NCBI GenBank assembly: GCA_000004695.1
Contig: CM000155.2
Span: 2,752,001-2,816,000 of the forward strand
Reading direction: 5' to 3'
Origin: Dictyostelium discoideum
Taxonomy: Eukaryota
DNA length: 64,000 bases
Shown here: positions 53,934 to 64,000 of the stretch, one piece after another
How positions within the stretch are numbered: position 1 is the stretch's first letter
How the letters are laid out: every line of letters begins with the position of its first letter
The notes under the pieces: model-generated
Told to the model about the DNA's origin: nothing
The model's database searches: none
What the model saw: the letters and a program-made list of their open reading frames with translations, nothing else
Translations under genes and position numbers: made by a program

Positions 53934-56900
53934 TTAATTAATAATAACTCTTAAAGAATTAGTTCTACCAAATACATCTGGATCATACATTTCTTCAATA
54001 CAAGCAGAAGGAATTAAATATTCACCTCTAGTTGAAGCACGAAGTGTGTATTTATAAGTGTATTTACCACGTTCCATTTGATTGGTAAAGACTTCACATC
54101 TTTCATCTCTTTGATTTTGGAATTCCCAAACTGTACCTTCCAATCTGAAATCAGTTTTATCAACGATATCGAAACCACCAGCGAATTTATCAACTAATGC
54201 TAAATTATAACGATCAACTTCAGTTTGAACATTAAGTGTAACCAATACTTTTGAACCAACTGAAACTTTGAGTACACCAGTTTCTGAATCAAATTCCATC
54301 TTATCACTCTTTGATTTTGGTGAATATTGTCTATGAATTGTTAAACCATTGAAATGTTCTTCAGTTGATAAATCAACTGTTGCATATTTAATATTCATAC
54401 GATAATATAATTTACCTTTACCTTCTTTTTGTAACCATAATTCAGATTTTGGTATTGAAATTATTGAGGTTGTTGATGATGATGGTTGAGTTTCAACTTT
54501 TTCAGAATTTTCATCAACATTTGATGATGGTTCAATAACTTGTTGTTTATCAGATTTAATAATATTATTAAATTTAACATTTTCTAAATCAGATTTTGAA
54601 TAAAGTATTGATAATGGTACTTCAATTGAATAAGAGATTGTTGATTTACCATCAAAGTATGGAGTTTGACCACAGAAAGTTGTTTTAAGATTTGAAGAAT
54701 CAGAAGTATTAACTAACCAACCTCTGGATAAACATTTTGGAGAAGAACGTTCAAAAGTTGAACTGAATTCAGCTACTGCAGTAATTACCCAACAATTAGT
54801 TTGAATATTTTTCCAAGTACCATTTTCTTTTCTATCCATTAAACCAATGATAACCTTTGAAACTACATCAATATTATAACGTGATTGAATTAATGATCTT
54901 GCAATGATTGCAGTTGTTCTTTCGAGAGAATGGAATAATTGTGATCTAATTAATTTATCATAATAAGAGTTAAAGTAGAGACAATTATTTTCTTCAAATG
55001 AATTTCTCATTAGATAGGTGATGATTTCATCACGCTTCTTAACGACTGATGAATCATTACCTTGAAGTGTACCAAGAATCCAAGCTAATGATTCCAATGA
55101 TAGGATTGAGTAAGTATGAGTTTGATAGAATTTCATAGCCAATTGAGTAACTGATGATTTATTCTTCTTTGAATGAATGCAGTATAAAGTGAATAGAGCA
55201 TAGGATACAGTTGCTAAAATGAATTGATCTTTTGATTGAAGATTAACTAAAATGTAACGATCTAACCAATCGATTGAGTTCTTTACCAATTGTTTCATTT
55301 TTGATGATTCAATTTCATAGCCATATTCAATCAATGTTGCAATGGCTTGAATTGCATGAACACTTTCGAAATCATTCTTTTGGAATGAAAGATTACTATG
55401 ACCTGCATATGATGGCCAGGTTGAGAAATCACCATTTTCATTTTGACGATTTCTTAAATCTAAAAATAGTTTACCAATCTTTGATTTTACAATCTTTGAT
55501 GGTGGTAAATTACGTGATGATTTCTGTTCACCAATGATATGATATAATGAGGCGATACCAATTGCAGCCGATGCTAAATTCTCTGTTCTTTCAAATGGAT
55601 AGTTATAAACCGATAGGAATGCATCATGAATATTTTGAAGAATGGTTGAACTAATATCTAATCCTAATGAACCAAAGATTGGAAGTGAGTCTTGAGGCAT
55701 TTCAATTGGTTGAATGACACCGGCACCATCATCGATGACACCATAGACAGAGGTGGTACGAGTTGTTGGTGGATTAAAGATTGGAATTGAAACTTGCATT
55801 GCATCACCATATTTACCAGATACACAAGAGATTTGAATTGAACCCACACCAGTATTCAATGTTTTAACATTGATATAGATAATCTTTCTCTTCTTTTGTT
55901 CAACAAATGAAAAGTGACCAAAAGTTGATGTACCATTTGAATTTAATATAGTTAAATGTTCAGAGCATTTTACACCAATCTTTACCATTCTATTATTATT
56001 TGAATTGTTACTTACTACAATACCAATAGTACATGAATCGTTAATATTCAAAAATCTTGGTGGTACACAACGAGTTGATACCAAAACCTTTGAAGTAATT
56101 AAACTTTCACCTTTACCAAACTTTTGTTCATCTTTTGAACAAACTACACCCCAAATACGATAACGTGTTAAATTATCTGGTAAATGAATTGGAATTGTAA
56201 TTTTACCAACTTCATTTGTAAATACTGATGGTGTGAAATTTGCTAATGCATTGAAATCTTTTCTCATCATTGATAATGATGATAATTCAGTTTCAAATAA
56301 ACCATCTTTTTCATAATCTTGATCATCATCATCATCATATTCTGAAGATTCTGATTTACTTTCATCGTCATCATCATATTGTCTTTTTGATTCTTCTTCA
56401 ACTAATGATGATTTTCTTGAAAGTTTCTTATCACTACCACCAAAATCAAGTAATCCAACTTCTCCTAAAGTTTCAGATCTTGAACTTAATGATGTTGAAA
56501 CTGAAGTACGAGTAGAAGAAGAGGAAGGGCTTTTCTCTTTATATTTTCTACTACTACTACTTCCAGAACCACCAAAACCACCAAATGAACTTTTCTTTGA
56601 TCTTTTCTTCATCAATGAAGCAGATTGTAATGTAGAGTTACCTTCCATATCAGCTCTTAAACTATCAGGAATGAAACCATCCAATGATGGATCATCATCT
56701 AATGAAACTTGTTTACGATAACTATCTTCAATGGTTGGGTCATATTGTTCAACAAAACAACTTTGCACATAACGAACGGTTAAAGCACTCTTACCGATAC
56801 CACCATCACCAACAATTACAATTTTATTTTCAGCGGTACCAGTGTAACCTGCTGATAATTTACTTACGATAGCAAATGCAGTATGAACGTTGAAACCAGT

Positions 56901-64000: not shown

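Follow-up and report, generated by a model that had tools for sequence, protein, structure and literature searches.

The 64,000-nucleotide stretch of Dictyostelium discoideum DNA analysed here (assembly GCA_000004695.1, contig CM000155.2, positions 2,752,001 to 2,816,000 of the forward strand; hereafter the window) ends inside a giant open reading frame (ORF) on its minus strand, and it raises the question of what a protein of this size, with a Ras-family GTPase set into a body of the A2M type, might be and how it might work. The explanation that we favour, and to which we give somewhat better than an even chance, combines two parts: the ORF is the 3′ part of the known gene cpras2, which encodes DdiCPRas2, and its product is a cytosolic A2M-type machine which has lost its thioester and is gated or recruited by a circularly permuted Ras domain (cpRAS).

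Extent and identity of the giant reading frame

Read downward from position 63998, the minus-strand frame runs through 3,354 sense codons without a stop until the TAA at 53934-53936, an uninterrupted frame of 10,065 nt which is still open at the window edge. With a stop probability per codon of 0.081, taken from the local composition, the probability of meeting no stop in 3,355 codons is approximately 1e-122, which excludes chance, and the remaining two minus-strand frames over the same stretch contain 187 and 480 stops. The GC content at codon positions 1, 2 and 3 is 39, 36.5 and 12.9%, i.e. there is a strong third-position AT bias. A preliminary description of this DNA, made from the letters alone, had already reported a continuous ORF too long for chance, and on both counts it was right; its figure of 78% AT was too high, as we measured 70.6% for the ORF and 75.7% for the entire window. 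It had also doubted the TTG at 63785 as a start codon and placed the true N-terminus outside the window, and rightly so, given that this TTG is an artefact of the ORF-listing rule and that the frame is unbroken at the edge and open to 64000. The possibility raised there that real introns split the ORF into unrelated genes finds no support either: in comparison with its collinear amoebozoan orthologue P0189 (EukProt, 3,750 aa; 37% identity in its N-terminal part, 56% in its C-terminal part), the conserved blocks of the ORF (aa 1-2435 and 2572-3353) are collinear in one frame, so that no intron is needed. Residue 1 of the window protein pairs with residue 499 of P0189, and the missing 5′ part amounts to ~500-580 codons beyond the window edge. 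The gene is single-exon across the 10 kb in the window, which holds the 3′ 85% of it, and the protein is ~440 kDa. Bacterial contamination was considered and ruled out, since the GC content is 29%, third positions are extremely AT-biased, poly-N/T/S tracts are present and the neighbouring genes are eukaryotic.

A D. discoideum protein with these properties has been described. DdiCPRas2 (EAL60755.1) has 3,933 aa and carries, at 2844-3013, a cpRAS domain, which is defined by the motif order G3-G4-G5-G1-G2; this domain sits between COG2373/A2M-like blocks at 2140-2771 and 3158-end, whereas the N-terminal half was then ‘without any recognisable domain’, and an origin by horizontal transfer was proposed for the A2M-like body (Elias & Novotny 2008, PMC2430557). 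An offset of ~578 residues maps the window cpRAS (2266-2435) and the start of the MG domains (1537-1567) on to the published coordinates, and the same offset fits the end of the conserved block (~2165-2193) and the restart of the A2M domain (2577-2588); the implied full length, 3,354 + 579, is that of the published protein. As the cpRAS motif order, the length and the four domain boundaries all agree at one offset, we take the ORF, with high confidence, to be cpras2, with the architecture set out below. Both have the same cpRAS (170 residues) between COG2373 blocks after a long N-terminal half, there is probably no real difference between them, and most likely they are one gene. The gene has been known since 2008, and finding it again is no discovery.

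An architecture as unusual as this might also arise if separate A2M-like and Ras genes had been joined in the assembly or in the gene model, or if the gene were a decaying pseudogene, a worry which the authors of 2008 had voiced themselves (PMC2430557). Against it stands the length of the uninterrupted frame with its strong third-position bias. In addition, a like architecture recurs in at least five independent assemblies or species (L001, L002, L003/L004, P0189 and P0204 from Mastigamoeba balamuthi, all described below) and is therefore no gene-model artefact, and the Ras-less relative P0191 from Cavostelium is a transcript, so the family is expressed. We consider this explanation to be effectively refuted, its remaining probability being close to nil.

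The A2M body and its bait region

The assignment of the body was based on Pfam and on alignments with bacterial proteins. The window protein contains a bMG10 domain (1.1e-30, 106.9 bits, cut-off 26.2), an A2M_BRD domain (6.6e-13, 49.6 bits, cut-off 22.7) and an A2M domain (PF00207; 3.8e-6, 27.1 bits, cut-off 21). The searches with hidden Markov models (HMMs) proposed in the preliminary description were thus borne out for A2M, and yielded A2M_BRD and bMG10 as well, but there was no Pfam match to TED in the window protein and none to the A2M receptor domain, in place of which bMG10 was found, and MG2 (25.4 bits) stayed under its cut-off of 32.8. The region at aa 1537-2178 is, however, 30% identical (E=6e-77) with L002, a relative which has an annotated MG2, and it also aligns with bacterial A2Ms, as do the A2M_BRD and A2M domains (12-23 bacterial sequences). 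The C-terminal 794 aa display 28-30% identity with bacterial A2Ms at 97-100% coverage, with E-values down to 8e-95, the matches coming from metagenome-assembled genomes of Acidobacteriota, Chloroflexota and Myxococcota. The TED region was placed by this alignment of aa 2561-3354 (97-100% of its length) and by a joint profile which runs through the TED of the Escherichia coli protein ECAM, and the equivalent exon of the relative L001 gives a weak TED_complement match.

For a comparison with proteins of known structure, the window protein was aligned with 23 bacterial relatives, and this alignment of 24 sequences (A1) was used as a profile against the PDB. The E-value was 3e-62 for E. coli ECAM/YfhM and 9e-60 for Salmonella A2M, as against 1.6e-13 for mosquito TEP1, 1.6e-11 for CD109, 1e-9 for human A2M and ~1e-4 for C3/C4. 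Single-sequence PDB searches with the A2M blocks before and after the Ras domain returned nothing, and with the Ras domain included Ras entries dominated the matches, so that only the A1 profile search was informative. Because these E-values favour ECAM and the C-terminal domain is bMG10, the ORF is, at the level of sequence, a bacterial-type A2M of the COG2373 branch, and not TEP-like or CD109-like. The A2M-family membership claimed in the preliminary description is thus upheld by three Pfam domains and by the bacterial alignments; its placement beside TEP and CD109 is contradicted by the profile, and the comparison with tep genes that it recommended concerns the wrong branch of the superfamily.

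The nearest solved relatives by profile are the type I bacterial A2Ms ECAM/YfhM (PDB 4RTD/4ZIQ/5A42) and Sa-A2M (PDB 4U48), which share with the window protein a bait-region domain, an A2M domain, a TED, a bMG10/CTMG domain, the RDDR/EXMY motifs, the pocket context YPY and probably an MG array. ECAM, a lipoprotein of the periplasm with ~1,650 aa, has an active CLEQ thioester, and its bait is short and disordered, whereas the window protein has RTEN at this site, a GTPase-bearing bait equivalent of 410 aa, ~1,900 extra N-terminal residues and leaderless relatives. TEP1, CD109, human A2M and C3/C4 belong to the same fold superfamily but are far more distant in sequence, and the eukaryotic thioester proteins are secreted, usually have GCGEQ and carry a different, receptor-binding C-terminal domain where the window protein has bMG10.

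Loss of the thioester at ERTEN had been noticed in the preliminary description, and alignment A1 places it at that very position (aa 2803-2807, 55578-55592). The thioester Cys, Glu and Gln are each conserved in at least 90% of the 24 sequences, but in the window protein Cys has given way to Arg (aa 2804) and Gln to Asn (aa 2807), and only the Glu is kept. The motif reads ECSEQ in P0041 and GCTEQ in P0065. The C-terminal lock motifs have been retained: RDER (aa 3298-3301) lies within NQRDERCEVF (aa 3296-3304, 54087-54113), and EEMY (aa 3335-3338, 53985-53996) lies within CIEEMYDPDVFGRT (aa 3333-3346, 53961-54002), the segment earlier singled out as an A2M-type C-terminal motif, which indeed holds the published EXMY lock motif of the CTMG domain. 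In native Sa-A2M the RDDR and EXMY motifs of CTMG bind the TED, and in cleaved ECAM they bind the released bait (PMC4498604). The RDxR/ExMY motifs are also kept in P0189, P0191, P0204 and L002. A precedent for a trap without a thioester is MagD, the type II A2M of Pseudomonas aeruginosa, which still traps protease non-covalently after bait cleavage (PMC5764988). Like the window protein, MagD has no CXEQ, yet its A2M fold and its bait region have been preserved; unlike it, MagD is periplasmic, works in the complex encoded by the six-gene mag operon and has neither a GTPase nor a repeat array. As the nearest bacterial relatives of the window protein mostly bear a thioester (consensus ECSEQ), the window protein seems to have lost its own independently of the MagD lineage.

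The window protein's N-terminal portion consists of an array of β-rich repeats with a motif period of ~120-130 aa. Iterative HMM searches delimited repeats at aa 5-96, 109-221, 234-344, 362-467, 558-665, 678-781, 804-905 and 1038-1147, and two subtypes alternate, one with IPTITPxxxxxW (a) and one with FxQxIDP ... PLPxxS ... SxEGPL (b). Direct assignment of these repeats met with little success: Pfam Big_5 (PF13205) matched one of 12 repeats, and weakly (E=0.026), precomputed matches to Big_5 in L002 and L003 are ‘faint’, the repeat profile found nothing significant in the PDB (the best E-values, 0.17-4, came from unrelated proteins, which were discarded), a word-indexed search for homologues of the repeat region came back empty, and a model of one repeat made with AlphaFold2 (AF2) from an alignment of eight paralogous rows was unusable, with a predicted local distance difference test score (pLDDT) of 51.5. 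A repeat profile built from the window alone and searched exhaustively with HMMER against 1.84 billion representatives matched 32 proteins. Among these, the giant amoebozoan relatives carry 4-8 copies and bacterial A2Ms of ~1,900-2,200 aa carry one or two, at their N-terminus (E=2e-5 to 5e-4), whereas shorter bacterial A2Ms have none. The long bacterial A2Ms carry Pfam Big_5 domains at 3.6e-22 to 6.9e-12, and the exact segments matched by the repeat profile scored 25.4, 24.9 and 22.7 bits with Big_5 (cut-off 23.6), one having no match. These profile matches show that the array is homologous with the N-terminal module of the long bacterial A2Ms. It is probably an amplified form of a module that the bacterial donor family already possessed, and probably of the Big_5/SbsA Ig-like type, a fold assignment in which our confidence is moderate. 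The region that follows (aa 1291-1536) is conserved in P0189 and partly aligned with L002 (aa 1388-1481).

In a MAFFT alignment with 12 long bacterial A2Ms, one conserved block ends with ...VIDESIIALSQHNVENPLNIFY (~aa 2165) and the next begins with MRKDFNALANFTPSV...LPDNLTRYR (aa 2578). In between, the window protein is N/S-rich ahead of the GTPase and S/D/E/K-rich behind it, and bacterial A2Ms have at this slot an unconserved P/G/S-rich linker of 90-140 aa. The attribution, in the preliminary description, of the extra length to N-terminal repeats and an insert agrees with the repeat array and the ~410-aa bait equivalent described here. The aligned blocks of ECAM end at chain index 890 and restart at 936, and once the shift in numbering is allowed for, this gap brackets the disordered bait region, Arg923-Asn963 (PMC4498604); the shift from chain index to native numbers was estimated, so that the mapping is approximate by residue but clear by domain. 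Since the alignment gap brackets the disordered bait, cpRAS, as judged from sequence, occupies the bait region of the A2M scaffold. In this superfamily the slot that separates the bait-region domain from the A2M domain is classically the variable one. Both the anaphylatoxin domain of C3/C4/C5 and the bait of A2M occupy the slot equivalent to the GTPase site of the window protein.

A basic/Gly-Phe linker motif, KKRSKKSSFGGFGG, lies downstream of the GTPase, and counterparts follow the GTPase in L001 (KKKAGGFGFALGG), L002 (KKKSKGGFGFGG), P0189 (KKKGGMSFGFGG) and L003 (KKKGGGGLSFGGG); the Ras-less Cavostelium protein also has one (KKKSAPLGFAFGG). This motif (KKKxxGGFGFGG) is kept in most of the family members examined and is missing from P0204 and P0206.

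The permuted GTPase and the amoebozoan relatives

The Pfam Ras match on the window protein (7e-47) is split over two stretches because the motif order is permuted to G3-G4-G5-G1-G2. A Ras-like insert had been recognized in the preliminary description and is indeed present, but its circular permutation had been missed. The domain bears the RAS-family mark TIEDSY, its G1, G2, G3 (including Gln61) and G5 motifs are canonical, and its break point lies between β2 and β3. It is collinear with the cpRAS-VWA proteins (e.g. that of Diphylleia) and with the junctions of tandem Ras domains, entry being before β3 and exit after β2. An AF2 model, made from an 11-row alignment, displays core pLDDT values of 88-97, a predicted template modelling score of 0.75 and the element order β3-α2-β4-α3-β5-α4-β6-α5-β1-α1-β2, and with this model Foldseek returned RRAS2, KRAS and Rap1B as top matches over 105-117 residues (root-mean-square deviation 1.1-2.0 Å, probability 1.00). 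The domain is thus predicted to adopt a Ras-like fold, and given the intact G1, G2, G3 and G5 motifs together with this confidently predicted fold, it probably binds nucleotide. As the new termini of the domain are the two strands of the β2-β3 hairpin, we infer from the established structure of Ras that it is held by adjacent tethers, with switch I by the C-terminal and switch II by the N-terminal one.

The closest GTPases are those of the cpRAS-VWA proteins (DdiCPRas1 type, e.g. Diphylleia rotans P0105), which have the same permuted domain with identical break points and which, once the motif order had been canonicalized, were 56-57% identical with the window cpRAS, the highest value of all comparisons; the identity with other permuted embedded GTPases was 46-50% and with canonical embedded ones 43-50%. 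The cpRAS-VWA proteins differ from the window protein in being ~640-970 aa long, with a zinc-finger-like motif, a VWA / Sec23-24 trunk domain and no A2M body, and in having canonical NKxD at G4, where the window protein has TKAD.

Relatives of the giant protein span Amoebozoa and differ in what their bait slot contains. The GTPase of P0189 is permuted (DTAGSE, NKCD, SAK, GNGGVGKS), and the thioester site reads ERTEN as in the window. In L003 and L004, from two ENA assemblies (ERZ26867466, that of L003, and ERZ25074310), the GTPase is permuted and all its motifs are canonical, and the thioester Cys is lost (LITNEQ). At 17874-18743 of L003, and likewise in L004, an F-box, LLPDEIVLEIFSYLPVTQLARIARVSRTWKAL, lies inside bMG10, and EEMY has become KALY; this suggests that in the L003 lineage the A2M-like protein is coupled to an SCF ubiquitin ligase. 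The neighbouring genes of L003 include one for a giant protein with cadherin/Big_9 repeats and a weak ADP-ribosylating-toxin-like ORF. In M. balamuthi P0204 the GTPase is degenerate but permuted, and the thioester Cys is again lost. L001 (Logan SRR28211912, 70-1669) and L002 (Logan SRR28285696, 9637-10162) represent a giant A2M-like gene of AT-rich eukaryotes (38% and 31% GC, respectively) with short GT..AG introns. Their GTPase is non-permuted (G1-G2-G3-G4-G5), Rap-like and situated in the bait slot, with an intron before DPTIE common to both, and catalytic positions are altered (DTASIEE in L001, DTSGAEE and GSQKTGKS in L002); L002 also carries N-terminal repeats and RDER/EEMY.

Other members have no GTPase. 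The transcript of Cavostelium apophysatum (P0191, 3,645 aa) has an intact thioester motif (YPYGCNEQ); by inspection, its bait region contains an IQ-like/charged coiled-coil segment, and the protein also has a PH-like insert. P0206 has neither GTPase nor thioester. P0191 combines its intact thioester with the lack of a signal peptide; if correct, it is probably an intracellular thioester-bearing protein of the A2M fold, which would be unusual. For P0190, a fragment from Balamuthia, the annotation reads ‘WH2 domain-containing’. A Pro-rich motif (FPPPP / FPPPxxxPPT-EAE) occurs at aa 89-101 of P0189, at aa 274-286 of P0191 and at ~1100-1200 of L002, and is followed, near the relatives’ N-terminus, by a charged coiled-coil-like stretch; the corresponding part of the D. 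discoideum gene lies outside the window. FPPPP resembles the motifs bound by the EVH1 domains of Ena/VASP proteins.

The relationships of the GTPases were examined in a neighbour-joining bootstrap tree (161 columns, 500 replicates, with HRAS and RAP1B references entered by hand), in which support is weak. L001, L002 and Rap1B grouped together in 77% and P0189 and L003 in 74% of replicates, and monophyly of all embedded GTPases was recovered in 0% and that of all permuted ones in 0.6% of the 500 bootstraps. One slot thus holds different GTPase modules in different lineages, for which replacement, independent capture or in-situ rearrangement are all possible explanations.

Cellular location and possible mechanism

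Along the lines of the preliminary description, which expected a signal peptide, the protein would be a secreted, thioester-less TEP/A2M-like factor of humoral immunity, related to eukaryotic TEPs or CD109, with an incidental Ras segment. The A2M fold and the loss of the thioester are real, thioester-less A2M homologues exist in bacteria (PMC5764988) and the window protein’s own N-terminus lies off-window, all of which would agree with this proposal. However, in each of the six relatives whose 5′ end is available the N-terminus is acidic and non-hydrophobic (maximum hydropathy 0.33-1.38, net charge -5 to -14; P0189 begins MESNSFDFELSEV...), four of the six sharing an F.F.L.E motif, whereas the leaders of bacterial relatives are obvious, with maximum hydropathy of 2.5-3.3. 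A signal peptide is thus unlikely. In addition, the profile favours bacterial A2Ms over TEP1, CD109 and A2M by ~50 orders of magnitude, and the C-terminal domain is bMG10, with no A2M receptor domain by Pfam. Given these leaderless relatives, the presumably GTP-dependent Ras domain, the F-box, the FPPPP motif of P0189 and the PH-like and IQ-like segments of P0191, the protein and its family are probably cytosolic, and a secreted humoral protein seems to us very improbable.

From the N-terminus, the domain order is an off-window head (acidic, Pro-rich and without signal peptide, to judge from the orthologues), the Big_5-like array, the MG and bait-region domains, the disordered bait equivalent with cpRAS, the A2M domain, the dead TED and CTMG. 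On the explanation that we favour, the two-state mechanics of A2Ms would be kept, with CTMG holding the TED until a bait segment is released, and any trapping or binding would be non-covalent, as in the thioester-less type II protein MagD. The protease-sensitive bait loop would have been replaced by a nucleotide-binding Ras module, whose GTP/GDP state or partner binding may set the exposure or tension of the bait and so gate a conformational change or recruit the scaffold. A non-covalent machine is proposed because the lock motifs are kept, MagD works without a thioester and one relative keeps its own; taken alone, this Ras-gated or Ras-recruited mechanism is a tentative proposal which we would not back at even odds.

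Several observations weigh against parts of this explanation. As regards the identity, no 100% match to the window protein was found in the protein database searched, and the searchable literature holds no functional data on the cpras2 protein, later papers only citing the work of 2008. At G4 the window protein reads TKAD in place of NKxD, so that guanine may be bound less well; relatives have Q, S, I or A at the Gln61 position, the GTPase of Mastigamoeba is degenerate, and P0191 and P0206 have no GTPase. Because G4 and Gln61 vary and the GTPase is degenerate or missing in some relatives, a regulated GTPase cycle is not a conserved need of the family. The lack of a signal peptide is deduced from orthologues only, and the conformational change of the A2M body is likewise a deduction, since the lock motifs could serve only to stabilize a static fold.

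The last point leads to a different view of the protein, in which the A2M body and the Ig-like array form a static structural or cytoskeletal scaffold and the Ras domain merely recruits effectors or serves as an anchor. The long array, FPPPP in P0189, the annotation of the Balamuthia fragment, the loss of the thioester in most members and the retained effector-binding residues of Ras all fit such a role, and some animal proteins of the A2M family are known to have functions other than inhibition. What makes a purely static scaffold unlikely in our estimation is that the RDxR, ExMY and YP[YF] pocket residues have been conserved across amoebozoan divergence despite the lost thioester, and that the intact GCNEQ of the Cavostelium member argues for a reactive trap as the ancestral eukaryotic protein.

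A further alternative starts from the position of the GTPase exactly in the bait-region gap. Here the embedded Ras would itself be the bait, an integrated decoy which is cut or bound by pathogen enzymes and thereby springs a cytosolic A2M trap, and in some lineages the F-box would pass the captured enzyme on to ubiquitination. Amoebae live under constant exposure to effector-injecting bacteria, which fits such a device. All five members with a Ras domain share an invariant switch I, DPTIE[DN]SYRK, whereas the Gln61 position (Q/S/I/A) and G4 vary, a pattern that would be expected if a recognition surface rather than catalysis were being preserved. In Ras and Rap1 the toxin RRSP/DUF5 cleaves switch I at the bond joining Y32 to D33 (PMC4468845), and this Y/D bond is present in the window (QYDPTIEDSY, aa 2418-2429). 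In addition, the slot content varies by lineage (permuted Ras-like, canonical Rap-like, IQ-like/coiled-coil, or nothing), the embedded GTPases are non-monophyletic in the rough tree (0% of 500 bootstraps), which suggests repeated capture, and one orthologue has the F-box in bMG10. All of this is wholly circumstantial, however: switch I is conserved in nearly all Ras/Rap proteins and discriminates weakly, the tree has the weak support, the 161 columns and the hand-entered references mentioned above, and as no Ras-bearing member has kept the thioester, any trapping would be non-covalent. Rap has a natural Thr at position 61, and variation there need not mean lost function. We therefore judge a Ras decoy in the window protein to be rather improbable, and we put no higher the wider proposition that the amoebozoan A2M-like giants are cytosolic integrated-decoy traps whose bait slot repeatedly captured host proteins attacked by pathogens. 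If that were true, the slot contents would comprise permuted Ras-like (Dictyostelium, Mastigamoeba, L003), Rap-like (L001, L002) and IQ-like/coiled-coil (Cavostelium) baits, and a cut in switch I at Y/D by RRSP-type toxins would spring the trap.

The coordinates of the features described are collected in Table 1, together with those of the neighbouring genes. With its 24% GC, its homopolymer-rich coding sequence, its three tRNA genes and a retroelement beside one of these, the window offers a context that fits Dictyostelium and the assignment to cpras2. Its ordinary eukaryotic genes have no evident functional link to the giant gene. A tRNA-Asp(GTC) gene at 25486-25558 (+) is followed within ~320 bp by a non-LTR (long terminal repeat) retroelement (25486-30182 with the tRNA gene), across which the GC content climbs to 31-35%. 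This arrangement resembles that of the tRNA-gene-targeted TRE elements of Dictyostelium.

Table 1. Features of the giant gene and of its neighbours; residues are numbered in the window protein and nucleotides in the window
Feature	Residues (aa)	Nucleotides	Strand	Remark
3′ 3,354 codons + stop of giant gene, probably cpras2/DdiCPRas2		53934..64000	-	whole feature
Tandem β-rich repeats	1-1290	60129..63998	-	~105-125 aa each; at least 8 by HMM
Unassigned region between repeat array and first MG domain	1291-1536	59391..60128	-	no Pfam match
MG domain core	1537-2165	57504..59390	-	ends in conserved ...VIDESIIALSQHNVENPLNIFY
MG2-like domain	1567-1654	59037-59300	-	Pfam, sub-threshold
Bait-region domain A2M_BRD	2010-2150	57549-57971	-	Pfam
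Bait-region equivalent	2166-2576	56271..57503	-	~410 aa, unconserved, mostly low-complexity
cpRAS	2266-2435	56694..57203	-	permuted Ras-family GTPase
cpRAS G3, DTAGQE	2274	57162-57179	-	
cpRAS G4, TKAD	2334	56988-56999	-	Thr for usual Asn
cpRAS G5, SAK	2364	56901-56909	-	
cpRAS G1, GDGGIGKS	2397	56787-56810	-	
cpRAS G2/switch I, YDPTIEDSY	2419	56718-56744	-	
Basic/Gly-Phe linker motif KKRSKKSSFGGFGG	2464-2477	56568..56609	-	downstream of GTPase
C-terminal A2M block	2577-3354	53937..56270	-	A2M/MG (PF00207), CUB/TED-equivalent, bMG10/CTMG
A2M/MG domain PF00207 with PDNLTRYR	2588-2674		-	Pfam
Dead thioester, YPFERTEN	2800-2807	55578..55601	-	bacterial consensus YPYECSEQ
bMG10/CTMG	3218-3341	53976-54347	-	Pfam
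C-terminal lock motifs RDER + EEMY		53985..54113	-	retained in CTMG domain
RhoGEF-PH-IQ protein		5100-7103	-	
Hsp70		10191-11912	+	
tRNA-Val(TAC)		16404-16477	+	
Retroelement ORF1		25877-26545	+	
Retroelement ORF2		26739-30182	+	AP-endonuclease 1.1e-9, reverse transcriptase 2.6e-36
tRNA-Ile(AAT)		32596-32668	+	
FtsH-like AAA + M41 protease		46298-48049	-	
TPR protein		49637-51661	-	

To the account of 2008 the present analysis adds the position of cpRAS in the bait region, the dead thioester with its lock motifs kept, the reading of the ‘domain-less’ N-terminal half as a probable amplified Big_5-like array which also occurs in long bacterial A2Ms, and relatives across Amoebozoa with a non-permuted GTPase, no GTPase or an F-box. 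The presence of canonical and permuted GTPases at one site offers a rare natural comparison for the evolution of circular permutation. With a Ras switch in what would be the trigger loop of a bacterium-derived protease trap, this is one of the oddest domain fusions of eukaryotes, and the comparative data yield clear hypotheses, a nucleotide-gated against a Ras-baited trap, in an organism, Dictyostelium, that is genetically tractable.

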